From Acidobacteriota bacterium (GTDB lineage Bacteria; Acidobacteriota; UBA6911; RPQK01; CBDEGM01): a DNA stretch of 64,000 bases. Both the position numbers and the translations under genes were made by a program. Within the stretch, counting starts at the first letter, position 1. The number at the start of each line of letters is the position of its first letter. Location of the stretch: the NCBI GenBank assembly GCA_965237715.1, contig CBDEGM010000003.1, forward strand, positions 519,913-583,912, given 5' to 3'. Of this stretch, positions 8,597-55,140 are shown piece by piece. The notes under the pieces were generated by a model that was not told where the DNA came from, ran no database searches, and worked only from the letters and a program-made list of their open reading frames with translations.

Positions 8597-8669
8597 CGGA
8601 TCACGCAGATCGTCACGGATTTTTGCAGATATGATCCGCGTCGATCTGTTCCGATCCGCGGATCCGCGG
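8597..8669. repeat. intergenic repeat family B copy 1 (GATCACGCrGATCGTCACGGAT..GCAGATAT.GATCCG.GTC.ATC)
   Basis: About 60 nt highly similar to 18095..18155. Both copies lie immediately 3' of a gene. Contains GATCCGCGGATC palindromes. Confidence 0.6.
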
Positions 8670-8765
8670 TCTCTGCTTTGACAGCAGTCAAATTCGGAAG
8701 GTATAATCCCTTTTCTCAACGACTTGTCGACTTTGTCGAACACTTCTTCTGAGGAGATACCTGTC

Positions 8766-11570: not shown

Positions 11571-11725
11571 AGAGACTCTAGTCTCTCGTTAGTTGTCATT
11601 CGTAGTCACTGGTCAGCTGGTCATTCGTCATTGACTAGATGTTCCAGGGCAGTAGCAGTGGCAGCCGGTCAGCTTTTCCCACTTGTCCCGGCGAGAAGAA
11701 TTTAGTATAAGGTCTCCTTTTGCGA

Positions 11726-13369: not shown

Positions 13370-13464
13370 GCGCGTCCCTGTCAGGGCCGCCATTGAAGGA
13401 GACGCAGACAGAATAGATGATTTCAGCGACAGGAGAGAATCTCTTGAACTATCGAGGCCTATTG

Positions 13465-13956
13465 ATGAGCTTCTTCTGGCTGATCCTGGTCGGGGAAATG
13501 ATGGGTTTATCCTGCACTCAGCGGAAGAGCAAGATGGACCATGGTGATATGGTATCCATTCTCGAGGTGAATCCCGCCTCACTCCCCGCTGGACCTGATC
13601 ACTTCCTAAAGGCAATCTTCACGGTTCGGAGTATTGGCTCCAAGCCGATTCCACTTGTTTTCAACAACGGTCAACTCTACGACTTCACTGTTGAGGACGA
13701 AGGCGGTCGCCTTTACTGGAAATGGTCGATAGGCAAATTCTTTACCATGATGATCGTCAGACGAGAATTGCGCAAAGAACCGTGGATTTATCGAGAAAAC
13801 ATCTCCACAATCGATGAACAAGGCCAGCCACTGCCGCCCGGAAACTACATTCTGCGTGCCAGGCTCAGCGCAGACAGGACGGCAGAGAACAGCCTCTCCT
13901 TTCGAATCGAGCCGGCTCCTGAAGAAATAAATCCTGAAGTAAATCCTAAATCCTAA
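13465..13956 (+). CDS. BsuPI-like intracellular proteinase-inhibitor domain protein, probably secreted/lipoprotein
   Basis: Signal-like MSFFWLILVGEMMGLSC. Then LVFNNGQLYDFTVEDEGGRLYWKWSIGKFFTMM...PLPPGNYIL matches the BsuPI beta-sandwich pattern. The 3' end runs into a heptamer repeat array. Confidence 0.5.
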   Translation: MSFFWLILVGEMMGLSCTQRKSKMDHGDMVSILEVNPASLPAGPDHFLKAIFTVRSIGSKPIPLVFNNGQLYDFTVEDEGGRLYWKWSIGKFFTMMIVRRELRKEPWIYRENISTIDEQGQPLPPGNYILRARLSADRTAENSLSFRIEPAPEEINPEVNPKS

Positions 13957-14008
13957 ATCCTAAATTCCAAGCACCAAGCTCCAAATAAATTCTCAATTCT
14001 AAATCCTA

Positions 14009-14095
14009 GCCTGCATTTCTCATCACCTCTCTACTGCATCGGCGTCGCCTTCACCTGAGCGAAGTGAAGAAATGATCCGTCCTGACTGCGTTGCG
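14009..14095. repeat. intergenic repeat family A copy 1 (GCCTGCATTTCTCATCAC...CTTCACCTGAGCGAAGTGAAG...CCTGACTGCGTTGCG)
   Basis: About 87 nt, roughly 90% identical to 28399..28485. Contains the internal hairpin CTTCAC-n9-GTGAAG. Confidence 0.7.
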
Positions 14096-14180
14096 TTTCT
14101 TCGGCCTCCTCGACGTACTGCACGAGTACGCCTGCGGGGGCCTCGGTCGCGCGCCTTGTCAGGCCGGCCCTTCCGCCGCT

Positions 14181-14210
14181 TGACACGAGTGTCTTGACAC
14201 AAGTGTCTCG
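14181..14210. repeat. tandem GACACGAGTGTC palindromic units
   Basis: GACAC-GA-GTGTC hairpin unit repeated twice. The same unit pair occurs at 18176..18205 and 35121..35161. Confidence 0.65.
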
Positions 14211-14312
14211 TGACGAGCCGTGATGAGAAATGCAGGTCAGAAGGTTTGGGATTTGGAATTTGGGATTTGGGATTAGAATTTAGAACTTACTCTGAGGATT
14301 TAGAATTTGTCA

Positions 14313-15075
14313 CTACTGCTTGTCAGAGTCTGACGTAATGGCCAGTTCGACGCAAGGCAGCGGCGCAGGCAGCTCTGGCAGGCGGCCCGAGAAGAAGTCC
14401 TTCATACGACCTCGCCAGTGTCCCAGAAGATTCCTTCTCTTGTAGCAATGGTCTCGAATTGAGTGGTAAAGCAGCGCCATGTAAATCATGAAGTTCTGGG
14501 CCGTGTCCGCTTCGTCGAACTCAGCGAACGGGTACTGTAGCTCAATCCAGGTCTCGGGATCACCGATCGAGAAGTAACGATCCAGCAGTTCTTCCAGGTC
14601 AGCGGCGTGATCCAACACCGATAAAGGGGTTCCTGTCAACACCATTGGCTTGGCACGCCGAAACAGATCAGCCAACACCCTGCGGTGCTGGCGCCACAAC
14701 CTGTTGAATGCCCGCCGCTCAGATCCTCCCCACACCTGGAATCCTACTGAGAAGAGGCAACTCTTATACGGCAGGATCGAAAACTTCAGGTGGACTCCGG
14801 CTGCATCGGTTCCGTCCTTCATAGGGATCCGGAGCCTTACGCTTTCGAAAATAGGCGGCTTCGGGAAAGAATTCCATGGTCGCAGCCGAATTGATTGAGT
14901 AACGGAATTGGTTGTGGTCACGAAAGTCCGCGTCAAAGATCTCGGCAGCTTGAATCGCCACTCTTTCAAAGAGATCCCATATGACATCATAGAGTTCCTC
15001 TTCAGGGTTGTTGATACACTGATAGGATTTCTCCTGAGTTGCATTCCTGAACATTTCGTAGTAACGGTTGTCCAC
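14313..15075 (-). pseudogene. hypothetical protein with apparent frameshift near 14760-14780
   Basis: Protein-like N-terminal part is in the 14764..15075 frame (MDNRYYEMFRNATQEKSYQCINNPEEELYDVIWDLFERV...). Protein-like C-terminal part is in the 14313..~14760 frame (...ERRAFNRLWRQHRRVLADLF...DRYFSIGDPETWIELQYPF...). The first ~85 aa of the 254-aa ORF are low-complexity. Confidence 0.35.
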
Positions 15076-15236
15076 AACTGGCTGCTTCTTGCTTTCTGCT
15101 CTTAAAGCGAATCGGGAAGCTTTGCCGCCCTCTCCCCAATAGAAGGTTACAATGTACTACAAGAGGGCAGACAAAATGTACAGAAATCTGTCCAGAAAGA
15201 GGCTCCGTAAGTCTCCCTCTTCGATTTGAAATTCCC

Positions 15237-16160
15237 ATGAAACAGATTATCGAGTGCGTCATGAATGTCAGCGAGGGAAAGGATTCTGCCAAACTCCAGG
15301 CCATCGCCGCAGAGATCGAGGGAGCGGCCGAGAGTTATTTGTTGAGCTGTGCCCCAGATGGCGATCACCACCGAGCCGTCTACTCCTTCATAGGAACTCC
15401 TGTCTCAATCCTGGCTGCTACCTTTGCAGCCATTCACAAAGCCGTAGATCTGATCGATCTAGGCAACCATCGGGGTGTTCATCCCCGTATCGGAGCCGTA
15501 GATGTGGTTCCTTTCGTTCCCTTGAAGGGAGTCTCGATGCAAAAGTGCGTAGAGCTAGCCCGCCGGCTAGGGAAAAAGGTGGCCCACAAACTACAAATCC
15601 CCGTCTATCTCTACGAGCGGGCTGCCCTGCGCCCAGAGCGCCGAAGCCTTTCCCAAATCCGGAAGGGTGGATTCGAGTTGCTCTTGCACCAGGTGGTGGA
15701 TCCCTCGCGTAGGCCCGATTTTGGTCCTCTGCGACTGCATCCTTCAGCCGGAGCCACGGTCATCGGAGCCCGGGACCCCCTCATTGCCTTCAACATTTAC
15801 CTGAATGCCTCTGAGGCCGGGGTGGCAAAGAAGATTGCCGCTCGGATTCGCGAAACGAGCAGGGGGCTTCCCGGGGTCAGGGCACTCGGCTTTCTCCTGC
15901 CCAGCCGAAACCAGGCCCAGGTTTCCACCAACGTGACCAACTACCGGCAGACACCTTTGCTTGCTGTGTACGAAAAGGTGTGCGAGGAAGCCTCTCGACT
16001 AGGCTACCAGGTGGTTTCCAGCGAGGTGATCGGCTTGGTTCCCCGGGAGGCTCTCCCCAATTCCGTCCTCAGGCACCTGCGGCTGGAGAACTTTCACCCC
16101 GGTCTGGTTCTGGAAAGCAGGATTTCAGAAGTGCTGGGAGTTGAAAATCATAAATCATAA
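15237..16160 (+). CDS. glutamate formimidoyltransferase (FtcD transferase domain)
   Basis: MKQIIECVMNVSEGKD matches the ECVPNFSEGR signature of formiminotransferase N-terminal domains. Full-length two-subdomain protein. Confidence 0.8.
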   Translation: MKQIIECVMNVSEGKDSAKLQAIAAEIEGAAESYLLSCAPDGDHHRAVYSFIGTPVSILAATFAAIHKAVDLIDLGNHRGVHPRIGAVDVVPFVPLKGVSMQKCVELARRLGKKVAHKLQIPVYLYERAALRPERRSLSQIRKGGFELLLHQVVDPSRRPDFGPLRLHPSAGATVIGARDPLIAFNIYLNASEAGVAKKIAARIRETSRGLPGVRALGFLLPSRNQAQVSTNVTNYRQTPLLAVYEKVCEEASRLGYQVVSSEVIGLVPREALPNSVLRHLRLENFHPGLVLESRISEVLGVENHKS

Positions 16161-16227
16161 ATCCTAAACAAATTATAAATCCTAAATCATCAGCACTACT
16201 CAGCCATTCCTTCGCCGCACGGTCTTT

Positions 16228-18051
16228 ATGCTAGAATTCGGTGCGAAGCAATCAGTGTTCCCAGGTCTGAATTTGAGAGGCGCGATTCGATTGAAATTCC
16301 AAACTCAACCATTCGACATTAAGCTCACTTTCCTCGCCATTTTTCTGACCTCCAATCTGGCAGTGAGCGCTGGAGTACGTCGCGAGATCGAGTCTGCTTA
16401 CGTCCAGAAATACGAGAATAAGGCAATCTTTCTCAGAGTCCCGGTCAGAGGGTTACAGCAAGTGGTCTTCGTGACCGCGGCAGGGCCAAGCCTGAATCGA
16501 GGCAACGTCACTGAATCACTCATGTTCAGAGTAGGGGACCAGGTACGAATTACAGAGGTGAAGTTTGGTGCAGACTACGTACGCTTCAAGATTGCCTCAA
16601 TCGACTTGCGGAGAGCAAGCGAAGTGGTCTTCCGATTCCCCTCACGTCTCCAGGAAAATTTCATCCAGAAAGACTCTCTCGATCGAGCTCTGGAGTACAG
16701 CTTTACGGAGGGTCTTCACTACGCTGAACTGGATTCTGCCAAGGAGCAATTTGTTCTGGATGAATTTGAAAAGATGCTGCAGCTTTTTGCCCGAGCGTCG
16801 GGTAGCTCAACCGATTTCGTGAGGAAGACGATCTCAGAGAAGAATCCGGACTATCTGGCCGTGAAAAAAGAGGCCACCGGGTTGAGACAAAAACTGGCGA
16901 ATGTAGAGGAAGAGTTGCAGCGGCAAGGGAAGGCTCGGGCTGGGTTGGAATCCCAGTTGTCGGGACTTAGAGAGAAGTTGACCCAGAGCGATTCTCGGCT
17001 GGATTCTGCGAAAATGGATTCCCGGCGGCTTTCCGAACAGAACGACTCCCTGAACAGACAGTTGAGGCAGCTTCAAGAGACGAACCGGGAGTATGAACAT
17101 CGTGTCGACGAACTGATCAGAACCCTGGACGTGAAGACCACCTCCAATGCCGATCTGGGCAAACGAGTAGAGGCTCTCAGTACCGCGATTCAATTGTTGC
17201 GGGAGGAGCGGGCGAGCCTTTCCCAAAAGCTGGATCAAGTAAGTGAGGAACTCGAAACGTTTCGCAAAAAGAACAGGCAACTTGAGGCAAAGCTGAGGCG
17301 GGCACGCCAGAAAAACACCAGACTGAGTAAGGACCTGCGGGCGCTCACTTCAAATCGGGAGAGCCTGGAAGCGCGCTACCTTGAAACCAAGAAGCGGAAA
17401 GAAGCTTTGGAAAATGCGGACGCGCTTGCCCAGGCTATGAGACTGGACAAGAGTATGGAAGAGAGAGCCGAAGGCACTTATCAGGTGGCCAATCTGTACC
17501 TGCTCAGTCAAAGGGTGGGAACCTTCGAGGTCCGGGTGCCCAAACATCCCGGAGAGGCCTGTCCCGTCCAGTTTTCGGCAGAATCGCCCGACACGGTTCA
17601 ATTCACCGAAGAAGAGCGCACACTCTACGAGGGTTTGGGAGAGAAACTGCAGATCGAGACAGCCTGGTCAACTACCTCTGACCGCTTGCACGCCGAGCTG
17701 GTGGAGAAGGAAGCACTACAGAGCCTGGCTCCCCGGGAAAAGGTTCAGTGGCCCTGGCGCCTGGAGGGCGAGCTCGCTCGGCCGGAGCGGGTCCTACTGC
17801 ACATCGATTTGATCAGCGCGGACGGGGAAAAGATTTCGCTGCCAGCCCAGGAATTTGTGGTAGAGCCGGGAGGAATGGTGGGTCAGCTGCGTCAGCATTG
17901 GTCTCTACCCTCGCTTCTTGCCGGAAGCCTATTGGGAATCTTCCTTTTTGGCCTTCTCTTCGGCTTCCGCCGTCGCTCCAGAAGTCAGTTTTCGCCGCCG
18001 TCGCCGAGCTCCTCCCGCAGCAGTGACTACGGAGCACCGAAAAGACTTTAA
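16228..18051 (+). CDS. hypothetical coiled-coil protein with N-terminal signal/TM and C-terminal membrane anchor
   Basis: A long heptad-rich central region of about 250 aa (LRQKLANVEEELQRQG...). N-terminal hydrophobic segment. C-terminal LLAGSLLGIFLFGLLFGF TM helix, then a basic tail. Confidence 0.5.
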   Translation: MLEFGAKQSVFPGLNLRGAIRLKFQTQPFDIKLTFLAIFLTSNLAVSAGVRREIESAYVQKYENKAIFLRVPVRGLQQVVFVTAAGPSLNRGNVTESLMFRVGDQVRITEVKFGADYVRFKIASIDLRRASEVVFRFPSRLQENFIQKDSLDRALEYSFTEGLHYAELDSAKEQFVLDEFEKMLQLFARASGSSTDFVRKTISEKNPDYLAVKKEATGLRQKLANVEEELQRQGKARAGLESQLSGLREKLTQSDSRLDSAKMDSRRLSEQNDSLNRQLRQLQETNREYEHRVDELIRTLDVKTTSNADLGKRVEALSTAIQLLREERASLSQKLDQVSEELETFRKKNRQLEAKLRRARQKNTRLSKDLRALTSNRESLEARYLETKKRKEALENADALAQAMRLDKSMEERAEGTYQVANLYLLSQRVGTFEVRVPKHPGEACPVQFSAESPDTVQFTEEERTLYEGLGEKLQIETAWSTTSDRLHAELVEKEALQSLAPREKVQWPWRLEGELARPERVLLHIDLISADGEKISLPAQEFVVEPGGMVGQLRQHWSLPSLLAGSLLGIFLFGLLFGFRRRSRSQFSPPSPSSSRSSDYGAPKRL

Positions 18052-18094
18052 CCCGGATTATGCATAAAGCGTCTACTGCATCGAGGAACCCACA

Positions 18095-18155
18095 GATCAC
18101 GCGGATCGTCACGGATGTTCGCAGATATTGATCCGTGTCAATCCGTTCTCATCTG
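18095..18155. repeat. intergenic repeat family B copy 2
   Basis: Matches 8597..8669 (gatcacgcggatcgtcacggatgttcgcagatattgatccgtgtcaatc). Confidence 0.6.
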
Positions 18156-18175
18156 TATTATCCGCGGGTTCCCCG

Positions 18176-18205
18176 CTCGACACGAGTGTCTCGACACGAG
18201 TGTCT
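18176..18205. repeat. tandem GACACGAGTGTC palindromic units
   Basis: ctcgacacgagtgtctcgacacgagtgtct. Confidence 0.65.
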
Positions 18206-18285
18206 TTGCTACGACATTTTTAGGTTAGGAATTGGGAATATAAGACCTACTTGACGTACACGGTAACGAGGTGTAGTTTGTTTGG

Positions 18286-18531
18286 GTGCGTTGGCAAAAA
18301 TGGTCCAGATGGATTGGAGCGAAGCCAGTATCAAGGATTGCAATTATTGCGCTGGTGCCAGGGATTGTCGGTGCGATTGGCGGAGGAATCTGGGAGTACA
18401 TCATGACTAGGGGACTATCAGGCTGGGTTCCGCTCTATGCAGGTCTGATTTCTGGGTTGATTTCGGGAATCGGAACCCTATTGTTTTCGTGGTATCTGGC
18501 GACGGCTCACCCTTTGGACCTGAACCACTGA
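18286..18531 (+). CDS. small hypothetical membrane protein (two predicted TM helices), IS passenger
   Basis: GTG-start ORF. RIAIIALVPGIVGAIGGGIW and LYAGLISGLISGIGTLLFSWYL hydrophobic helices. Low-GC cargo region. Confidence 0.3.
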   Translation: MRWQKWSRWIGAKPVSRIAIIALVPGIVGAIGGGIWEYIMTRGLSGWVPLYAGLISGLISGIGTLLFSWYLATAHPLDLNH

Positions 18532-18885: not shown

Positions 18886-20235
18886 GCACGCCCAACTGGG
18901 CCAACCAGACCATCTGGACCGGGGATAACCTGCCGATCATGCGGGGCATGAACTCGGAGTCGGTAGACCTTATCTACTTAGACCCCCCCCTTCAACAGCA
19001 ATACGAACTACGCTGCTCCCATTGGCAGCAAGGCTGCTGGAGCCGAGTTCAAGGACACCTGGACCCTCACAGACATCAACGTCGAGTGGGTGAACCTGAT
19101 CGAGTCCAAGCACCCCGCTCTCCACCGTGTCCTGTTGGCGGCGATGACTTCCAGCGACAAGTCCTATCTGATCTACATGGCCGCTCGACTTCTCGAAATC
19201 AGGAGGATTCTCAAGCCCAAAGGCTCGATCTACCTGCACTGTGACCCGACCATGAGCCACTACCTCAAACTGCTCATGGACGCGGTTTTCGGTAAACGTA
19301 AATTCAGAAACGAAATCATCTGGAAGCGCAACTCATCACATAACGACTCGAAGGCATTTGGCCGCGTGGTCGACTCGCTCCTATTCTACGGCCCGCCAAT
19401 AAGGACCGATTCCGTCCGTGTCCCGCTAAGCACAGATTACACTGAGAAGTTTTACCGTCACCGGGACCACCGAGGGCTGTATCGACACGACAACATTATT
19501 CGATCCGCATCGATGGGCGAACGGCCTAACCTGACCTATGAGTACAAAGGCTTTACGCCACCCTTTGGGTGGCGAATGACCAAAGACAAGATAACGGCGC
19601 TGGACGCGGAAAACCGAATAGCTTGGTCTGCATCTGGGCGACCCTATCTGAAACGCTATTTGAGTGAGAACAAGGGGCAGGTTCCGTCGGCGATCTGGAC
19701 CGATATTTCGCCAATTTCAGGCCATGCCAAGGAACGAGTCGGCTATCCGACGCAGAAACCTGTCGCGCTACTGGCTCGCATCATCCAAGCAAGCTCCAAC
19801 ACGGGTGATATGGTTCTGGACCCGTTCTGCGGATGCGCCACGGCCTCCATTACGGCTCAGGGTTTACACAGGCAGTGGGTAGGAATCGATATCTCTCCCA
19901 AGGCCGCCGATCTAGTTCAACAGAGAATGCATGACGAACTGGGCCTATTTTCCAAGGTCATCCACCGCACGGATACTCCCAAACGCACGGACCTAGGAAC
20001 GCTCCCTAGGTACAACTCCGATGCCAATCGAAAGGAGATCTACGGCGATCAGGAAGGTCACTGCAACGGATGTCGGATCCACTTCGAGCTACGCAACTTG
20101 GAGGTAGGCCACATCATCTCCAAGGGCAAAGGCGGGACCGATCACATTGGAAACCTGCAACTTCTTTGTGGGAACTGTAATCGGATCAAAGGAGACCGTG
20201 GCATGGAGTACCTGAAAGCGAAGCTACAGATATGA
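18882..20235 (+). pseudogene. beta-class N6-adenine/N4-cytosine DNA methyltransferase fused to C-terminal HNH endonuclease; reading frame broken at a C8 homopolymer (18983..18990)
   Basis: N-terminus MSTPNWANQTIW..SVDLIYLDPP is in frame 0. With C7 instead of C8 it would read DPPFNSNTNY...KDTWT..., motif IV, and continue into the 19090..20235 frame. That frame carries HPTQKP-like GYPTQKPVALLARII, motif I VLDPFCGCATA, and the HNH motif HCNGC...HIISK...GNLQLLCGNCN. Confidence 0.7.
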
Positions 20236-21258
20236 GAAAACGACCTGACTATGGAAACGCAACCCCGGAAGACTTGGTGAGAGCTCTTCTGCGCGTGCAC
20301 CGGAAGACAGCCCGTTATCGGCAATCAGTTCCTGGTACATCAGTTGTTTCCCAGCCAAGCCCCGCACAACCCGTCTCATCTGGTGCAGAGTGTCCAGCTG
20401 GCGAAGGTTGTGCTTCCCAGCGAACTCACGAACATAGCGATCCAGATGTTTAGGACTGATCTTGTGAAAGACTCCCGTATGCGCCCTTTTGAGCATAGAC
20501 CAGAAGCTCTCGACGCCATTGGTATACGCTTTCCCTCGCACATACTCACCAATCGAGTGCTTAACCGTCTCATGATTCGGAAGGGTGTGGTAGGTCAAAG
20601 CGTCATCGGTGTAGATTTTGGTTCCCAGCTTGACGTGCTCCATAATGAAAAGGCTCATGGTCTCAGACTTGGTATTGCGGACAACTTGGGCGGAGACTTG
20701 ATTAGAGGATCGATCTTTGATCCCCGCTACAGCCATTTTGCCAGTCGGTCCACGACCACTCATCTGAGCTCTCTTGGTCTTGTTCATGTTCCTGCGCTTT
20801 CCTCCTATGTAGGTCTCATCGACTTCGACCGGGCCGGAGAAAGACGTTCCACCGTTTTTAGTTCTGGTCCAGGCTTCTCGAATTCTGTGGAGCATGAACC
20901 ATGCAGCGGGTTGACTGACCCCAATGTCGCTCGCCAACTTGGTGGAGGCGATGCTCTTCAAACTGGTCAGTTCCAGATAAATGGCCATAGCCCATTTGTG
21001 GAGCGAGAGGTTTGTTTTGGCAATGGGCGTCCCAGTGCGGACCGAGAAATACCGCTCGCAATCTCGGCACCGATACGGCATGGGCTTTCGGTTGGGCACG
21101 GTGTAGGTATTGGTGGACCCGCAATGCCCACAACACCTTTCCTCTGGCCACAGTGTCTTTTCAAACCACTCCTCAGCTGCTTTTTCGTTGGGGAACATGT
21201 CCATCAAGTGGATAATGTTGAGTTTCCTGCGTTGCCGGTTTCTTGTTTGTTTTCCCAT
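20224..21258 (-). CDS. IS1595-family (ISXO2-like) transposase
   Basis: N-terminal zinc ribbon CCGHCGS...YRCRDCERYFSVRTGT, then the ISXO2-like DDE domain (VEVDETYIGGK...). 344 aa. Confidence 0.85.
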   Translation of the reverse strand: MGKQTRNRQRRKLNIIHLMDMFPNEKAAEEWFEKTLWPEERCCGHCGSTNTYTVPNRKPMPYRCRDCERYFSVRTGTPIAKTNLSLHKWAMAIYLELTSLKSIASTKLASDIGVSQPAAWFMLHRIREAWTRTKNGGTSFSGPVEVDETYIGGKRRNMNKTKRAQMSGRGPTGKMAVAGIKDRSSNQVSAQVVRNTKSETMSLFIMEHVKLGTKIYTDDALTYHTLPNHETVKHSIGEYVRGKAYTNGVESFWSMLKRAHTGVFHKISPKHLDRYVREFAGKHNLRQLDTLHQMRRVVRGLAGKQLMYQELIADNGLSSGARAEELSPSLPGLRFHSQVVFSYL

Positions 21259-25025: not shown

Positions 25026-25200
25026 CACTGAGTACTCTCTTTCATAAATACGGTAACGTATGCGGATGGGGCGGGACGGGCCCATCTCTTTGTTGCTCCT
25101 CCTCGCCGATGTCTCGACATCGACTCGTCGTCGCGCCTCGATCTGGTCTGGGTCGCGCTCCCAACATACGTCATCGTATTTGTAAAAGTGAGTACTTAGT
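25026..25200. mobile_element. MITE-like palindromic element, copy 1 (AGTACT-terminated, about 175 bp)
   Basis: Ends are AGTACTCTCTTTCATAAATACG ... CGTATTTGTAAAAGTGAGTACT. The reverse complement of the interior matches the first ~150 bp of 51684..51976 at roughly 90% identity. Confidence 0.7.
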
Positions 25201-26809: not shown

Positions 26810-28396
26810 ATGAACATTCTCCTGTACAACCCCGACAATGAAGTGACACGGAACTATATGCCACACCTCTGGATGTTCGTTCTGCAAGCATTGACTCCTC
26901 CCGAACACAAAGTGTTTCTCATCGATGGGAATGTTCAACCATTGACGGAAAAAGAAATCGCAGATTTCGTCAGGAAGAATGAGATCAAGCTCGCTGGAAT
27001 CGGTGCCATGACTCGCATGGCGGCCCGTGCTTATCGAATGGCGGATTCAATCCGCGGCGCTGGCGCCAAGGTCGTCATGGGAGGGCCCCACGTCACGGAG
27101 GTGCCGGATGAACCCTTAGGACGAGACAGCGAGCCTCGCCACGCCGATGCTGTTGCTCTCGGAGAGGCTGATAATACCTGGCCGGAAGTCGTGCAAGACG
27201 CCGAACGAGGCGAGCTCCGGGAAGTCTACTTGCCCGTGGATGCAACGGGAAAGGAGATCAAGCCGTCCCTGGAAAACTATCCACTTATACCCTGGGAGCG
27301 GTTGGATCTGGACCAGTTCGACCTCATCAAGAAGATACCTGGCTGGGTGAGCCGCGTTATGAAACGAGCGGGAATCCACCTCTGGAACAGCTTTTATGTG
27401 CTCCCCGTCGAATCCGGGCGCGGTTGTCCTTACGGCTGTGACTTTTGCACGGTGACTGGTTTCTTCGGAGACTCCATTCGGTTTCGGACAGACAAGAGTG
27501 TGGTTGATGAGCTGCTCCGCATCAAAAATCGAGCCAAGGCCGAAGGAGGAAGGGTTGCGGTCTTCTTCATCGACGACAACTTCGCCATCAACGTAAAAAG
27601 AACCAAGTCGCTGCTGCGTGAAATCATCGCGCGTAATGCCATATTGCCATGGGTGGCTCAAATCAGTGCGAATCTACTTCGTGACGAAGAGCTGGTCGAC
27701 CTGATCGCTGCCAGTGGCGGCCGTTGGATATTCATGGGACTCGAATCGATTGACACGGAGACCCTGAAAGATGTCAACAAAGGGTTCAACAAGCCGGCTC
27801 AATACGGAGCGATTATAAACCGCTTGAGACATCGAGGAATTTATGCCATCACTTCCTTCATTTTCGGTATGGACGGGGACCGCTTTGGGGTCGCAGCAAA
27901 GACACTTGAGGCCATAGAGTCTTGGCCCCCAGGCCTTCCCGTATTCGGGCTCCTCACACCTTACCCGGCCACCCCCCTTTATGATCGCCTGCTCCAACAG
28001 AACCGCCTCACACGGCCCAAGCACTGGCTCGATTTCCGTCCTTTCCGGATGGCCTTCACGCCCAAGAACATGAGCGTGGAACAGGCGGAAGCCGAAGTTC
28101 ACGAGGCCTGGGATCGACGCTACAGCTCACAGGCGATTGCGTCTGCTCTCAAAAAGATCGAGGAACGCCCGTTTGGTGAACGCCTGACCCTGTTCTTCGC
28201 GCAACTCGCCTTTCGCGGCATCTATTTTCCCCAAATGACGGCATGGCACTGGATCTCCCTGTTGTTCAGCAACCGGAGGACCTTGATGCAGTTAATGGGT
28301 GAAGGCTTAGCTGAACATAGAAAAGGTCGCACGAGCGTTGAGGCCAACGTCCTCAGGTCGGCACCGGTGGAACAGTCGCAACGCAAAGCCCACTAG
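26810..28396 (+). CDS. B12-binding domain-containing radical SAM protein (paralog 2)
   Basis: Same architecture as paralog 1. GRGCPYGCDFCTV radical-SAM cysteine triad. FFIDDNF matches FADDNF in paralog 1. Confidence 0.75.
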   Translation: MNILLYNPDNEVTRNYMPHLWMFVLQALTPPEHKVFLIDGNVQPLTEKEIADFVRKNEIKLAGIGAMTRMAARAYRMADSIRGAGAKVVMGGPHVTEVPDEPLGRDSEPRHADAVALGEADNTWPEVVQDAERGELREVYLPVDATGKEIKPSLENYPLIPWERLDLDQFDLIKKIPGWVSRVMKRAGIHLWNSFYVLPVESGRGCPYGCDFCTVTGFFGDSIRFRTDKSVVDELLRIKNRAKAEGGRVAVFFIDDNFAINVKRTKSLLREIIARNAILPWVAQISANLLRDEELVDLIAASGGRWIFMGLESIDTETLKDVNKGFNKPAQYGAIINRLRHRGIYAITSFIFGMDGDRFGVAAKTLEAIESWPPGLPVFGLLTPYPATPLYDRLLQQNRLTRPKHWLDFRPFRMAFTPKNMSVEQAEAEVHEAWDRRYSSQAIASALKKIEERPFGERLTLFFAQLAFRGIYFPQMTAWHWISLLFSNRRTLMQLMGEGLAEHRKGRTSVEANVLRSAPVEQSQRKAH

Positions 28397-28398
28397 CA

Positions 28399-28485
28399 GC
28401 CTGCATTTCTCATCACTCCTCTACTGCGTCGGTGTCGCCTTCACCTGAGCGAAGTGAAGAAAGCATCTGGCCTGACTGCGTTGCG
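28399..28485. repeat. intergenic repeat family A copy 2
   Basis: gcctgcatttctcatcactcctctactgcgtcggtgtcgccttcacctgagcgaagtgaagaaagcatctggcctgactgcgttgcg. Matches 14009..14095. Confidence 0.7.
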
Positions 28486-28585: not shown

Positions 28586-29920
28586 TCACCTTGTGCCGCT
28601 CCAGGAGGGGCTGACAGCGATCGAGGAGCGGTATCCGCTTGCACAGTGCACGACCACCATTCGATCGCTGGAAACCCTATTGATTTGTTCCTGCAGGTGA
28701 TTCAAGGGAATATTGAGACTTCTCTCGATTTGTTTGGCCCGCCACTCCTTCCCTGTGCGGACATCCAGCACAAGCGGCGGTTGCGACGAGGCAAGTTCTT
28801 CAACAAGCGTGGCAGCCGTGATACGAAGAGTCTGTCGCACCAGATCGGGGGTTGCCTCGAGCGCCTGCATTCCCCCCTTGAGATAGCCGGCCACATGGTC
28901 AAAACCGATGCGACCCAGTCTCATCGCTGCTTCTTCCTCACGTCCCGGCTCGGCGATAATCACAATCGGGTCCTTTTCATCGAGGATCGTTCCGGCCCAG
29001 GTCGCGTATTTTCCACCAAGGCCAATGTTGATGGCGTCAACCAAGTGTGCGCCCGCAAAGTCCGCGGGATCGCGTACGTCCAAAAACTGAGCTCCACCCT
29101 CTTTCAATCGAAGTACTTCCTTGACAGTAAGGGGTGTAAGTGTCTGCTTGAGCGTCTCCTCGAGGGTGGGTGCTCCTTCATGTTCAGGACGGCACCATAG
29201 GTCATAGGTAAAATAGTGTGGTGCATCGAGCTGGTCGGCAGTCACAATCTGGACAAATTCTTCCGGGCTCATGGGTTGGAGTGCGTAGTTGTATCGGCGC
29301 TGGATTCCGATTGTGGACCGGGTTTCTTCGCTCAGGTTCTTGCCACACATCGACCCGGCTCCATGTGCCGGATAGACCAAGGTTTCATCCGGAAGGCGGA
29401 GGAGCTTTTTGTGAAGTGAGTCGTAGAGCATGCGTCCCAGTTTCCTCGAGGACCATCCGAGGGAAGCCCTCAGGTCAGGACGCCCCACATCGCCTATAAA
29501 GAGGGTGTCTCCTGTGAGGACGGCATGTGGATTGCGGGCATCCTTCTTCAGATCGTATACGACAATCGAGATCGACTCGGGCGAGTGGCCCGGTGTCTCG
29601 AGGATCTCAAGGCGTACCTTGCCGAACTGTAAGGCGTCCCTATCCTTTACCGGGGTAAACTCATACTCGGTTTGGGCCCGGGCACCCAGGTGAATCCTGG
29701 CTCCAAGCCGATCTCTCAGTTCCAGATGACCAGCCACAAAGTCGGCATGGAAGTGACTGAGAAACACGTGGCGGATTTGGAGGCCTTGTCGCCTGGCATC
29801 TTTCAAGTATTGGTCTATATCTCGCTGAGGATCCACAACCACAGCCGTTCGGCTTTCCTCATCTCCGATCAGATACGAGGCATGTGCGAGACAACCCAGG
29901 TAGTATTGTTGAAAGAGCAT
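28586..29920 (-). CDS. MBL-fold persulfide dioxygenase fused to rhodanese domain(s)
   Basis: HFHADFVAGH metallo-beta-lactamase motif and ETPGHSPES. C-terminal rhodanese active-site loop VVHCASGYRSS. Confidence 0.75.
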   Translation of the reverse strand: MLFQQYYLGCLAHASYLIGDEESRTAVVVDPQRDIDQYLKDARRQGLQIRHVFLSHFHADFVAGHLELRDRLGARIHLGARAQTEYEFTPVKDRDALQFGKVRLEILETPGHSPESISIVVYDLKKDARNPHAVLTGDTLFIGDVGRPDLRASLGWSSRKLGRMLYDSLHKKLLRLPDETLVYPAHGAGSMCGKNLSEETRSTIGIQRRYNYALQPMSPEEFVQIVTADQLDAPHYFTYDLWCRPEHEGAPTLEETLKQTLTPLTVKEVLRLKEGGAQFLDVRDPADFAGAHLVDAINIGLGGKYATWAGTILDEKDPIVIIAEPGREEEAAMRLGRIGFDHVAGYLKGGMQALEATPDLVRQTLRITAATLVEELASSQPPLVLDVRTGKEWRAKQIERSLNIPLNHLQEQINRVSSDRMVVVHCASGYRSSIAVSPSWSGTR

Positions 29921-35052: not shown

Positions 35053-35120
35053 GGTTTCGCTCCTTATTTTTGCGGGAAGCTTGCGACGAAAGCCGACTCA
35101 CTATGCGTAAACTGTCTACT

Positions 35121-35161
35121 GACACGAGTGTCTTGACACGAGTGTCTTGACGACGAGTGCC
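35121..35161. repeat. tandem GACACGAGTGTC palindromic units (x2 plus a degenerate third)
   Basis: gacacgagtgtcttgacacgagtgtcttgacgacgagtgcc. Confidence 0.65.
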
Positions 35162-35455
35162 TTCGCTGTTAATGCTCACTGAGAACCGTAGTTTTTTGGA
35201 CACCCGCCGGTAGTTAACTCAACATCATCCGCACCGCAGGTGCGCGTTTCATCATCCGCGCTTGAAAAGCGCGGGGCCATTTTTCCTGAACAGTTGGTGT
35301 AGTGTCTGGGGGCCAAAGGTGGAAAGGACCTCGACCCTTTGACCGAGAATCGAGGTCCGGTTGTGGCAACCCCGTTACAAGTGGAGGACCACCGCAGACT
35401 TCACTGTAGCCTGTCATGATCCTGGGCTGTTGTCCAGTTCCGCCGGGACTGGACT

Positions 35456-51641: not shown

Positions 51642-53339
51642 ATGAGCAAATCTCTGCTTCTGATGTTCTCCTTGGCAACTCTTAGTACTCCCTTCCATAA
51701 ATACGATGACGTATGTTGGGAGCGCGACGGAGACCAGATCGAGGCGCGACGACGAGTCGATGTGGAGACATCGGCGAGGAGGAGCAACAAAGAGATGGGC
51801 CCGTACCGCCCCAACCCTTTGGGCGGATGGGGGTTGCGGGCGATCTCTTTGTCGTTTGTCGTCGACGATGCCTCTGCATCGCCTAACGATGCCACCGCAT
51901 CGCCTCCTCCTCTCTTCGCGACCTCACCTCGCAAGCCCCATCCGCATACGTCATCGTATTTATGGAAGGGAGTACTAAGTCCGGCTCCGGGACCAACGCA
52001 ACTGCGGGCCTTCCCACAAGGGGAGGATAGTGAAGAAGCGGTGAGCTTGGCGCGTCGGTACGCCCGGGAAGAGAAGCTTCTGAAGGCCGTGTCCGAGTAC
52101 CGGCGGGCACTGCAGTGGGACCCCACTCATGAACCGGCAGCCTTGGAATTTACGAGCCTTCTCTATGGTATGGGTCGCCATAAGGAGGCCTACGCCGTCA
52201 GCCGCCAGCTCCTGCGCGATCATCCAGAGCTGCTGCGGGTACGTCTCAATTTCGCTTCTCTTCTGCAGAAGGCCGGAAAGCTGGAAGAGGCGGAAACCGA
52301 GACTCAGATGGTATTGTCGGAACTGGAAGGAAAGGTCTCCGAGGACCACCCGATTCGAGCGTACGCGCTGCACCTGCTGGGAAGGAATCGACTCAATAGT
52401 GAACGCTACGGAGAAGCAGAGAAATATTTCCTGAAGGTGATCGGGTGGAATCCCGACTTTTCCGAAGCCCATCTCAATCTGGCACAGTTGTACACACTGA
52501 TGCCGGAGAGCAAGGAGAGAGCAGTCCTGCATTTTCAGAAGGTAGTGGAACTACTGCCCGAGTCGGCATTTGCCCGCCTGAAATTTGGGGAAACCCTGCT
52601 CAATATAGGGAAGAGCCGCCAGGCCATCGCCCATCTGGAAAAGGCGGTTGAGTTGGCTCCCGATTCCGCAGCAGCGTACTATCGCCTTGCTTCCGCCTAC
52701 CGCAATGAGGGCGACATTGCAAAAACCGAACGGATTCTTTCCCGCTTTCACACACTCGACTCCAAGAACCGGTTCTGGGAGAGATCCCGGGCAAAAGCTC
52801 AGGCCTTCTATAAGGAAGGAACAGAGAATCTGAAGCGTGGCGACGTGGGTCACAACAACCAAAAGAACGTGGAAAAGGCCCTCAGGGTATTTGAGAAAGC
52901 AGTGGCACTCTCACCCGATTATCATGAAGCTCATTCCGGCCTGGCTCAAGGCTATCTGGATCTTTCCCGTCCCCGGGAAGCGCTAAACCATATTGATCAG
53001 GCTCTCTCACTGCAACCCTACGACTCCCACTGCCACTATATTCGAGCCCTCTGCCTACAGGGGCTCAGAAACATTACCGCTGCCCTCGAGGCGCTGGAAA
53101 ACGCCATCAACCTGGATCCCTCTCTGGCCCAATACCACAATCTTCTGGGGAATCTCTTCTTCAGCAACGGCCAGTACCAGGAAACCGTATCTGCTTACCG
53201 GAAGGCGGTGGATTTGGAGCCCTTGAATGCCCTGTACCATCTGAACCTCTCCTCCGCCTTAGCGAAAATTAACCGCTTCGATGAAAGCAAGAAGGAGAAG
53301 GAACGGTATCAAAAGCTTCTCACCAAACCGTCGGAGTAG
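51642..53339 (+). CDS. TPR-repeat protein; 5' region traversed by the MITE (true start may be GTG near 52036)
   Basis: About 10 TPR units from residue ~130 onward. The ORF is open through the 293-bp MITE, which begins after a signal-like MSKSLLLMFSLATL. Confidence 0.6.
   Translation: MSKSLLLMFSLATLSTPFHKYDDVCWERDGDQIEARRRVDVETSARRSNKEMGPYRPNPLGGWGLRAISLSFVVDDASASPNDATASPPPLFATSPRKPHPHTSSYLWKGVLSPAPGPTQLRAFPQGEDSEEAVSLARRYAREEKLLKAVSEYRRALQWDPTHEPAALEFTSLLYGMGRHKEAYAVSRQLLRDHPELLRVRLNFASLLQKAGKLEEAETETQMVLSELEGKVSEDHPIRAYALHLLGRNRLNSERYGEAEKYFLKVIGWNPDFSEAHLNLAQLYTLMPESKERAVLHFQKVVELLPESAFARLKFGETLLNIGKSRQAIAHLEKAVELAPDSAAAYYRLASAYRNEGDIAKTERILSRFHTLDSKNRFWERSRAKAQAFYKEGTENLKRGDVGHNNQKNVEKALRVFEKAVALSPDYHEAHSGLAQGYLDLSRPREALNHIDQALSLQPYDSHCHYIRALCLQGLRNITAALEALENAINLDPSLAQYHNLLGNLFFSNGQYQETVSAYRKAVDLEPLNALYHLNLSSALAKINRFDESKKEKERYQKLLTKPSE
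51684..51976. mobile_element. MITE-like palindromic element, copy 2 (293 bp), lying inside the 51642..53339 ORF
   Basis: Ends are AGTACTCCCTTCCATAAATACGATGACGTATG ... CATACGTCATCGTATTTATGGAAGGGAGTACT. Its first half matches the reverse complement of copy 1. Confidence 0.7.
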
Positions 53340-53341
53340 AA

Positions 53342-55102
53342 GTGGGAATCCTCAAAGGTACGCTGGGTTTTCTGCTGCTTTTTCCCGTTCTCACTGAAGC
53401 GGGGCCGGCGCAATCACCCCAGGATGCTCCTGCGTCAGTGGAATTCGTCGATGTGACCGGGGCCTCCGGAATTGATTTCCAGCATGTGAGGGCCTCGACT
53501 TCTGAGAAATACCTGGTGGAGGTTATGGGCTCCGGTTGCGCGTTTTTCGATTACGACGCAGATGGTTGGTTGGACATCTTTCTGGTGAACGGGGGCGCGG
53601 TCCCGGGCTTCCGCTACCCGGGAGCGATCGATCACGCCCTCTATCGAAATCTCGGCAACGGAAAGTTTCAGAACATGACCCGTCGATCCGGAATCCGAAA
53701 ACCATCCCACTATGGCATGGGTGTGGCGGTTGGCGATTACGACAATGACGGGTTCGATGATCTCTACCTGACCTACTTCGGAGGCCCAAACCAGCTTTAC
53801 CGCAATCGTGGAGACGGAAGCTTCGACGACGTAACCAGGAGGGCCGGTGTGGGGGGTGATGGCCAGTGGAGCACGAGTGCCGCCTTTTTTGACTACAACA
53901 ATGACGGGTTCCTGGATCTCTATGTTACCCGCTACACGGATTTTCACTATGATCGCAACCGAGTCTGTGGACCCGTGGAGAAGGGACACCGGGGCTACTG
54001 CAACCCCAAGGTTTATGATGGCGTTTCCGATCTGCTTTTCCAAAACAACAGAGACGGTACCTTCACCGACGTCAGTGTCGCCAGTGGTATTTCCGTGTTG
54101 CCGGCCAAAGGCCTTGGTGTGGTGGGAGCCGATCTCGATCAAGACGGCTGGCCGGATCTCTATGTGGCAAACGATACGGATCCGAATTATCTTTTTCGCA
54201 ACAACGGGGACGGAACCTTTCGGGAGATGGGCCTTCTGGCGGGGGTGGCCCTCAGCGAGAACGGAAAGGCACAATCGGGTATGGGTATTGGTTGTGCCGA
54301 CTATGACCGGGATGGCCTGTTCGATCTGGCCGTGACCAATCTTGACGTACCGGAATATCTTGCGGTGTATCGCAACCTGGGTCACCTCTTTTTTGAGGAT
54401 GTGAGCGCGCGACTCCGCATCAAGCGTGCCAGCAGCAGGTACGTGGGATTCGGAGTGGGATTTTTCGATTTTGATAATGATGGAGATTTGGATCTGTTTG
54501 TCGGCAACGGGCACATCAACGATGTTCTCCTGACGGGTGAGAATATCTCCCTGAAACAGCCGAAGCTCCTGTTTGAGAATCTGCGAGGGAGGTTTCGGGA
54601 AGTTGCCTCACACCACGGCGAAGCCCTGCTCGAAACACAACTCAGCCGGGGGGTGGCCTTCGGTGACTACGATAACGATGTCGATGTCGACGTTCTCGTT
54701 GCTAACGGTGGGGAGAAACCTGCACTTCTGCGCAATGACGGGGGCAATCGGAAGCACTGGCTCAGCATTCGCCTTCAGGGAACCAAAAGTAACCGCAATG
54801 GAATTGGCGCGGTTCTCACTCTGAAAACGGAAGCGGGCATTCAGAAAACCGTGCTGGCGGAAGGGGGAAGCTACCTTTCCAGCAACGATCTGAGACTTCA
54901 TTTCGGCCTGAGGGAGCAACAGAAAGTCAGTAAACTGGAGATTCACTGGCCCAGCGGCGTCGTGGATCAGATGGGGCCCATCGAATGCAACCAGTTGATT
55001 GTGGTAAGAGAAGGGACGAAACAGAAAGGGCGGCAGGTCGAACTCAATTCGGGCTCTACAGTTAACCACCAAGACACAAAGACACCAAGGTTCACAAAGT
55101 AA
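53342..55102 (+). CDS. CRTAC1-like secreted protein (FG-GAP repeats + ASPIC/UnbV domain)
   Basis: GTG start with signal peptide. YDADGWLDIFLVNGG-type FG-GAP repeats. C-terminal NRNGIGAVLTLKT...GGSYLS UnbV/ASPIC domain. Confidence 0.7.
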   Translation: MGILKGTLGFLLLFPVLTEAGPAQSPQDAPASVEFVDVTGASGIDFQHVRASTSEKYLVEVMGSGCAFFDYDADGWLDIFLVNGGAVPGFRYPGAIDHALYRNLGNGKFQNMTRRSGIRKPSHYGMGVAVGDYDNDGFDDLYLTYFGGPNQLYRNRGDGSFDDVTRRAGVGGDGQWSTSAAFFDYNNDGFLDLYVTRYTDFHYDRNRVCGPVEKGHRGYCNPKVYDGVSDLLFQNNRDGTFTDVSVASGISVLPAKGLGVVGADLDQDGWPDLYVANDTDPNYLFRNNGDGTFREMGLLAGVALSENGKAQSGMGIGCADYDRDGLFDLAVTNLDVPEYLAVYRNLGHLFFEDVSARLRIKRASSRYVGFGVGFFDFDNDGDLDLFVGNGHINDVLLTGENISLKQPKLLFENLRGRFREVASHHGEALLETQLSRGVAFGDYDNDVDVDVLVANGGEKPALLRNDGGNRKHWLSIRLQGTKSNRNGIGAVLTLKTEAGIQKTVLAEGGSYLSSNDLRLHFGLREQQKVSKLEIHWPSGVVDQMGPIECNQLIVVREGTKQKGRQVELNSGSTVNHQDTKTPRFTK

Positions 55103-55140
55103 TCCTCTTGGTGCCTCTTTGTGTCTTGGTGTCTTTGTGG
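55062..55140 (+). terminator. long imperfect hairpin spanning the stop codon of the 53342..55102 gene, followed by a T-rich tract
   Basis: caccaagacacaaagacaccaagg ... ccttggtgtctttgtg arms, then gtaaaaaactcttt. Confidence 0.35.

Follow-up and report, generated by a model that had tools for sequence, protein, structure and literature searches.

In the 64,000-nt window analysed here (the whole stretch of contig CBDEGM010000003.1, from an uncultured Acidobacteriota bacterium), the region between positions 13937 and 14312 is the spacer of two convergent genes, a BsuPI-domain gene on the plus strand and a minus-strand gene without a Pfam domain. The spacer opens on the left with a TAAATCC run, a CTAG and the 17-mer CCTGCATTTCTCATCAC; the 17-mer returns in exact reverse complement after 193 GC-rich bp, and a second heptamer run closes the spacer. 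A 227-bp element with the properties of a miniature inverted-repeat transposable element (MITE) lies between these two heptamer arrays. The initial annotation had described the spacer as a composite inverted-repeat structure of 375 bp built from three repeat modules. All of the sequence features it listed are present where it had placed them, and the modular structure was borne out. The minus-strand gene is regarded as real because its protein is 84% identical over 182 amino acids to the syntenic open reading frame (ORF) of a related species (locus L077). Exact-protein look-ups of the neighbouring genes returned only the source contig, and the Obg GTPase of the window is 66–71% identical to the best organism-named matches, all of which are labelled Acidobacteria or Acidobacteriota bacterium. 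Coordinates are collected in Table 1.

The inner element carries only short, spurious ORFs and has no coding capacity for a transposase. Its arms are complementary at 17 of 17 positions, and extended arms of 22 nt match at 91%. With up to three mismatches allowed, the 17-mer has three matches in the window, compared to 0.17 expected, a number reached by none of 100 shuffles. The left sub-terminal segment, with its CTTCAC (14049–14054) and GTGAAG (14065–14070) hairpin, corresponds to a 25-nt insertion relative to the Bryobacterales consensus; it is shared with the window copy at 28398–28485, and the L077 copy carries another hairpin in the same slot. The core is about 73–78% identical to many places in Bryobacterales loci. 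The consensus of the family folds into a terminal stem and a central hairpin, and pairing within the central hairpin is kept by compensatory double changes in the two most distant copies (L052 and L024). Two palindromes had been reported for this part of the spacer; one is exact (GACACGAGTGTC, 14182–14193), while the second differs from it by one mismatch (GACACAAGTGTC, 14196–14207), both being interrupted palindromes of the form GACAC-GA-GTGTC. A module of the same type adjoins the right end in L077 and occurs in two remnants within the window (18176–18205 and 35120–35163).

The window holds one full copy of the element, one partial copy and two relatives with variant ends. The partial copy is also situated between convergent ORFs (26810..28396 on the plus strand and 28586..29920 on the minus strand). 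The variant end, TTAA followed by CCCGGATTATGCATAAAG, has 13 of 20 positions in common with the first end type, as counted from the alignment. In the relative at 18052..18240, ATCCGYG-type repeats replace the inner part, with two GACACGAGTGTC units and the decayed right end coming after them, and the orthologous L077 copy (18168–18440) retains intact 21-nt inverted ends and a core shared with the window element. The sequence at 35095..35175 is probably a remnant of a variant-end element. Alignments show that the pieces initially taken for independent repeat modules (a 'family-A' piece, the CTTCAC hairpin and the GACACGAGTGTC pair) are sub-parts or relatives of a single element family. Repeats of the GATCCGC/ATCCGTG type are found at 8599–8670 and 18095–18160 (54 nt at 87% identity), the latter forming the interior of the variant-end element that follows gene 16228..18051.

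Table 1. Coordinates of repeats and neighbouring genes in the window
Feature	Position	Strand	Remarks
BsuPI-domain gene	13417/13444..13956	+	Stop codon TAA 13954–13956; Pfam BsuPI; left array overlaps the stop
Start of left repeat	13925..13965	+	12-nt repeat GAAATAAATCCT ×2.4, then 3.7 perfect TAAATCC units (Tandem Repeats Finder, TRF); encodes EINPEVNPKS and TAA
Left outer arm	13937..14009	+	Perfect, then degenerate TAAATCC, TAAATTC, TCAATTC; CTAG end at 14006–14009
Left terminal inverted repeat	14010..14026	+	CCTGCATTTCTCATCAC; perfect 17-mer
Variable left sub-terminal segment	14027..14076	+	Boundary motif TCTACTGCATCGG (14030–14042) and CTTCAC...GTGAAG hairpin (14049–14070)
Conserved element core	14077..14171	+	Includes central hairpin CGTACT-gcacg-AGTACG (14114–14130)
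Right sub-terminal module	14179..14208	+	Two tandem 14-nt units, CTTGACACGAGTGT and CTTGACACAAGTGT, with interrupted palindromes GACACGAGTGTC and GACACAAGTGTC
Right terminal inverted repeat	14220..14236	-	GTGATGAGAAATGCAGG on the plus strand; followed by TCAG flank, not CTAG
Right outer arm	14237..14312	-	Minus-strand CAAATTC, TAAATCC, TTCTAAA, CCCAAAT and similar; 2 nt past the stop of the minus-strand gene
Convergent gene without Pfam domain	14313..15077	-	TAG-TGA stops, TAG at 14313–14315; from ORF list
Glutamate formimidoyltransferase gene	15237..16160	+	Stop codon TAA 16158–16160; overlapped by heptamer array
Single-armed heptamer array	16145..16190	+	TAAATCA/TAAATCC, about 7 units; overlaps stop 16158–16160; encodes tail VENHKS
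Variant-end relative	18052..18240	+	TTAA then CCCGGATTATGCATAAAG; at the stop codon of gene 16228..18051
Second copy of left terminal inverted repeat and left sub-terminal segment	28398..28485	+	88 nt at 91% identity; no right terminal inverted repeat
Decayed, internally deleted variant-end remnant (probable)	35095..35175	+	ATGCGTAAAC-GTCTACTG fused to three 14-nt GACACGAGTGTC-type units

The 17-mer was scanned against one genome per GTDB species, and the counts given here rest on the matches listed. Among these it occurs several times per genome in many metagenome-assembled genomes (MAGs) of Bryobacterales and other Acidobacteriota. Full elements were extracted wherever 17-mer ends stood in inverted orientation with no more than three mismatches, giving 43 further end-to-end elements among the matches listed, bounded by inverted copies of CCTGCATTTCTCAYCAC or its CAYCAC variant. 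The inner element of the window is a member of this family. Most copies are 176–178 bp long, with variants of about 187, 200 and 260–277 bp, and lengths of 176, 177 and 178 bp, which are not multiples of three apart, argue against a conserved ORF. The 227-bp window copy is colinear with the others except for two sub-terminal insertions, the 25 nt of the CTTCAC hairpin on the left and the GACACGAGTGTC pair on the right. Fetched loci of Bryobacterales genomes carry up to 11 ends per 8 kb. Several of the 17-mer matches in Bacteroidales and Caldilineaceae were set aside, judging by eye, as probable chance matches inside genes, as they had no TAG flank and no element interior, and their sequence was conserved between unrelated MAGs.

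The family is mobile. The flanks of the 44 elements are centred on TA: on the left, T is found in 38 and A in 42 of the 44, and on the right, T in 39 and A in 37, the commonest flank on either side being CTAG. Left and right flanking 4-mers are identical in 13 of the 44 elements, compared to 7.1 expected when the right flanks are permuted (p = 0.005). One filled site (L031, 5975–6175) could be compared with an empty one (L032, about 733–812), both from Bryobacterales; the flanking sequences align contiguously at 93.5% identity over 400 nt, with a single CTAA where the element is absent.

The terminal repeat was also seen in the Planctomycetota MAG casp150-mb.46, where CTAG and the 17-mer end are followed by a different interior (atcggaaaatgtggaggggcatcggcgtagcgcggcgttttttt) at 45–65 nt from the ends of at least nine contigs (L004, L006, L015, L018, L040, L046, L064, L070 and L072). 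Its position at contig ends suggests a high-copy repeat that breaks short-read assembly. These copies represent either a spread of the terminal repeat across phyla or a binning artefact.

The outer arms are of a different nature. TRF found a period of 7 at 13940–13965, 13986–14008, 14245–14285 and 16145–16190, that is, units of 7 nt arranged head to tail in intergenic DNA. The left arm is a (TAAATCC)n array (13940–14008), and an imperfect complement with GGGATTT and GGAATTT units is present at 14245–14309. The two had been described as (AAATCCT)n arrays and their reverse complements. Both are indeed heptamer arrays, but the right arm is chiefly the complement of AAATCCC and AAATTCC, not of AAATCCT, and pairing is imperfect, the best being 29 nt at 83%. 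A recurrence of the array further along, also reported initially, was confirmed at 16145–16190, as was the overlap of arrays with the stop codons of two genes. All three arrays of the window start at or just past a stop codon and run in the sense direction of that gene. Three TAAATCC units suffice for a stop in each frame; an ORF that enters such an array must therefore end in it, and changes in unit number can affect only the last few residues.

Comparison with relatives separates the arms from the inner element, and the two layers are independent. One strain (L074) matches the window at 99.2% identity along 6.5 kb that end precisely at position 14010. Its left arm is retained, with two perfect TAAATCC units rather than three, a 7-bp indel showing that heptamer copy number does vary between strains. 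As this difference falls past the stop codon, both strains have the same protein tail. Beyond the CTAG, an IS5-type element (DUF772 and DDE_Tnp_1) and unrelated genes replace the MITE and the right arm. In the sister species (L077, Obg 92% identical), the gene order is kept, but the spacer is only about 137 bp and has neither the MITE nor a TAAATCC array; instead, CACAAAG-type units form a 72-bp hairpin there, with TAA on its flanks. The left arm standing alone in L074, and a spacer without MITE or heptamers in L077, indicate that the composite is an accident of successive events and not a conserved unit. The inner 227 bp being multi-copy elsewhere, the single coherent structure of 375 bp that had been proposed is not upheld.

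The proposal that array length could alter C-termini fared less simply, since the one observed change of unit number lies past the stop, while array-encoded tails do differ or are absent between species. The BsuPI-domain protein ends in SFRIESALGRK in L077 versus EINPEVNPKS in the window, and the formimidoyltransferase in LGGKQ versus LGVENHKS, with other arrays at the L077 site. With other tails and other repeats at these sites in the sister species, the TAAATCC arrays are young.

Several further observations concern these relatives and their repeats. The IS5-type element of L074 (6561–7925; two ORFs, possibly frameshifted) abuts the very CTAG used by the window MITE, and the strain-level rearrangement breakpoint, where L074 loses synteny, coincides with the position of that MITE. 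In L077 (13800–14234), an in-frame stop (ggt tag ctc) splits the BsuPI-domain gene into two small ORFs, making it probably a pseudogene. Hairpins of about 72 bp, composed of CACCAAGA/CACAAAGA 8-mers and their complements with TAA on both sides, occur at 55067–55140 in the window and at 14256–14333 and 18421–18465 in L077, and are probably another small mobile palindromic element. The spacer between RsfS and rlmH (window 11590–11650; L079 12000–12102; L077 12016–12057) contains short arrays of other 7-nt units (GTCATTC, GTTCCAG, GACCGGT and similar); unit count and unit sequence differ among the three related species, and the position is shared. Short heptamer arrays with yet other units (TCACGAA and similar) are common in the fetched Bryobacterales, Bacteroidales and Opitutales loci. 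It is possible, though unlikely, that short tandem arrays of 7–8-nt units, differing in unit sequence at equal intergenic sites of related species, reflect active generation or replacement of arrays rather than passive slippage.

Inverted symmetry in the spacer goes well beyond short palindromes, as the initial annotation had held. The predicted RNA fold of 13937–14312 (376 nt) has an energy of -153.1 kcal/mol, compared to -106.0 ± 5.7 kcal/mol for dinucleotide shuffles (z = -8.25). Both layers contribute: the inner element alone gives z = -5.1, and the outer arms joined without it fold at -48.4 kcal/mol (z = -5.2), which falls to -5.9 kcal/mol when one arm is flipped. Searches with Rfam gave no match at the gathering threshold over the whole window, and only chance-level matches (E ≥ 2) in a permissive search of 13800–14450. 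A scan for intrinsic terminators between 13700 and 14600 returned no sites, compared to 1.3 expected in shuffles, and no T-tract; the promoter and terminator scan gave two weak promoter-like matches. The suggestion of a long cruciform or structured RNA as a dedicated unit found no backing, there being neither a sign of selection nor an Rfam match.

The region is best explained as a nested pile-up of two ordinary kinds of repeat in a permissive convergent spacer, a MITE within a hairpin formed of heptamer arrays, and we hold this reading with good confidence. The first layer comprises the TAAATCC-type simple-sequence repeats at 13937–14009 and 14237–14312, each starting at or just past the stop of its gene and running in the sense direction; these arrays would grow and shrink by replication slippage. 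As the genes converge, the two arrays face each other and can pair into an AT-rich hairpin. The second layer is the non-coding 227-bp MITE at 14010–14236, with its 17-nt terminal inverted repeats and self-folding GC-rich core. It was inserted at a CTAG within the loop that the arrays enclose, presumably through a trans-acting DDE transposase cutting TA-centred sites (NTAN, mostly CTAG). As for the host, should read-through transcripts of either gene carry the composite, they would fold into a long stem-loop, which might stall polymerase or shield 3′ ends, an effect regarded as a by-product and not as a selected function.

It is improbable that the whole composite is instead a selected unit, such as a bidirectional terminator, an insulator or an RNA-stabilising stem-loop serving the convergent genes. 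It does lie exactly between them, starting at both stops, with a very stable predicted fold; the second copy at 28398 likewise lies between convergent ORFs, and the L077 spacer has a hairpin of short tandem units too, so that some hairpin recurs here. Yet the spacer sequence is wholly unconserved between relatives, and a more distant third relative lacks both convergent genes. The composite has neither a T-tract nor a consensus terminator, the CACAAAG hairpin of L077 is itself a TAA-flanked dispersed repeat that is also found at 55067–55140 of the window, and convergent spacers simply tolerate insertions. Doubtful to a similar extent is a function of the heptamer arms by themselves, which might act as Rho-loading (rut-like) sites on a sense strand that is C-rich and unstructured directly past the stop codon or, as proposed for the heptamer repeats of Xanthomonas and Nostoc, form G-quadruplexes on the opposite strand. 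The sense strands are poor in G (4 G and 19 C in the 73 nt of the left arm; 5 G and 21 C in the 76 nt of the right arm, read on the sense strand of the minus-strand gene; 3 G in 61 nt at the 16145 array), the plus strand of the right arm has GGG and GG tracts, GC skew drops to -0.58 across the left arm, all three arrays are sense-oriented at gene ends, and a known analogue within 50 bp of stop codons forms G-quadruplexes in vitro (PMC4692102). These are three cases only, however, and the sister species is without arrays at the same sites. Most of the G-tracts consist of GG or GGG and are interrupted several times, and the G-rich strand in Xanthomonas is the coding strand past the stop, the reverse of the window arrays. 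Nor do (TAAATCC)n arrays in metagenomes show an orientation bias towards ORF ends.

The origin of the inner element has also to be considered. Between paired ends in the fetched loci, the only genes are of the IS110 family (DEDD_Tnp_IS110 and Transposase_20), in two Bryobacterales/Acidobacteriaceae MAG loci (L053, 4096–5549; L034, 5017–6792); in L053, where the element is of the 277-bp type, the insertion directly borders its right terminal repeat on the inner side. Together with the nest of hairpins that makes up the element, these genes could speak for an origin other than a DDE transposon, with the element being REP- or BIME-like (repetitive extragenic palindromes and bacterial interspersed mosaic elements), of IS200/IS605 type (Y1 transposase), or a target or by-product of an IS110 recombinase. 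We consider this very improbable. Symmetric 17-nt terminal inverted repeats, TA-centred flanks on both sides with an excess of identity, and one empty site are traits of cut-and-paste DDE elements; the first two were taken to rule out an identity as REP or IS200/IS605-type. Neither IS200/IS605 nor IS110 elements duplicate their target or carry terminal repeats of this kind, and the IS110 copies appear to have inserted secondarily into elements already in place.

Other candidates for a parent or a larger unit were rejected. In L065 and L033 the ORFs that adjoin solo ends turned out to be ordinary genes, and the IS5-type element of L074 has an unrelated end (CAGCCCGTGGCAAAAGTACC) whose inverted partner was not found. 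The outer arms could be imagined as terminal repeats of a larger, older MITE, but there is no second such pair, the 16145 array is single-armed and the left arm is alone in L074. Distant blastn searches of a plasmid collection with the consensus and the window element gave nothing relevant.

A number of points weigh against the nested pile-up of MITE and arrays. No autonomous element with the terminal repeats of the family was found in the roughly 0.5 Mb of loci fetched, a search that did not extend to whole genomes, and both the transposase acting in trans and the family it would belong to are ones that we infer. The window copy is flanked by CTAG on the left and TCAG on the right, with no clean duplication, and its insertion lacks a clean empty site, L074 having another element at the CTAG and synteny being lost. 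The size of the target duplication appears ambiguous (2 or 4 bp): five non-palindromic matched 4-mers (CTAA/CTAA three times, CTAT/CTAT and ATAG/ATAG) favour a 4-bp duplication, whereas the single empty-site comparison and the variable outermost flank positions favour a TA duplication within an NTAN target. That arrays start at gene ends in sense orientation is based on three arrays, and the metagenome scan with (TAAATCC)3 found no such bias; its matches were heterogeneous, many of them long arrays in poorly coding contigs, and are uninformative on function. Finally, the compensatory changes in the central hairpin are a weak signal that may reflect some structural constraint on the element, as DNA or as RNA.

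As a MITE, the inner element resembles known bacterial examples (Correia/NEMIS of Neisseria, and those derived from IS630/Tc1-mariner and IS5). Common to both are a short length (about 180–230 bp), non-coding sequence, high copy number, terminal inverted repeats and strong fold-back, as well as a putative TA-centred target duplication, intergenic positions often at gene ends, size variants through indels, and presence/absence polymorphism. It differs in that its CCTGCATTTCTCAYCAC terminal repeat and core are without a match in the searched literature or Rfam and its parent insertion sequence was not found, in its host range (Acidobacteriota, with possible copies in Planctomycetota and other MAGs), and in sub-terminal slots that hold different hairpin or heptamer modules from copy to copy. 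Among papers on Acidobacteria and MITEs, none describing a CCTGCATTTCTCAYCAC-ended element was found, and a literature search with the terminal-repeat sequence gave only unrelated primer matches. The family is apparently undescribed and abundant in Acidobacteriota.

BIMEs of E. coli and BOX elements of Streptococcus pneumoniae are composite intergenic elements in which a few recurring sub-modules are variably combined, a feature shared by the present family, but they do not have long terminal inverted repeats and target duplications, and REP units are moved by RAYT tyrosine transposases. IS110/IS1111 elements target repeats and transposon ends, IS621 inserting into REP and IS4321/IS5075 into the inverted repeats of the Tn21 family. 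The IS110-family genes inside family elements at two loci, one at the inner edge of a terminal repeat, are similar in this respect, although the likeness concerns related loci and not the window.

Heptameric intergenic repeats include the short tandemly repeated repetitive (STRR) sequences of cyanobacteria. In Xanthomonas (GGGAATC) and Nostoc (GGGGAYT), heptamer repeats are concentrated no more than 50 bp from stop codons; they frequently form inverted pairs and differ among close relatives (PMC4692102). The TAACTGA repeats known from Beggiatoaceae, Cyanobacteria and Bacteroidetes overlap stop codons and provide a frame-independent stop (PMC4679880). The window arrays are like all of these in having 7-base units in a few to a dozen copies, in intergenic positions near or overlapping stops and often in inverted pairs. 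They differ in their A/T-rich TAAATCC unit, with the C-rich strand sense to the upstream gene, and in number, with three arrays in 64 kb.

Other repeats and genes of the window stand apart from the spacer. Another MITE-like element, with long terminal inverted repeats cttagtactcccttccataaatacgatgacgtatg, is present as a 300-bp copy at 51681–51980 and a copy of about 175 bp at 25027–25200, which share 136 nt at 93% identity. An IS1595-family transposase gene (20224–21258) adjoins a gene encoding a fusion of an N6/N4 DNA methyltransferase and an HNH nuclease (about 19090–20235; Pfam). The copy of the 1.39-Mb metagenome-assembled contig in the European Nucleotide Archive (ERZ26167216) aligns with the window at 99.99% identity with one gap, a 1-nt indel between about 9548 and 15237 that changes the offset from 5237 to 5236 and likely stems from polishing or from another version.

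There is no hint of a new biological mechanism; the spacer is ordinary repeat debris and not a purpose-built structure. An unlikely but broader possibility is that the element represents an undescribed MITE superfamily, with ends of about 20 nt identical across Acidobacteriota and possibly in Planctomycetota, Myxococcota and Gammaproteobacteria MAGs, with slots that swap hairpin or heptamer modules, and with copies that may be preferred landing pads for IS110-family recombinases of the bridge-RNA type. Bryobacterales genomes are densely populated by the family, with several copies per 8 kb of the loci sampled. This matters for annotation and assembly; copies can pass for structured RNAs or regulatory palindromes, and recognising the family accounts for several odd inverted repeats of the window at once. 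Its terminal repeat provides a handle for tracing the mobilising transposase, and the IS110 insertions may be a natural instance in which recombinases target a dispersed repeat. The arrays extend to an acidobacterium the excess of 7-nt repeats that is known, but poorly understood, from the intergenic DNA of bacteria.

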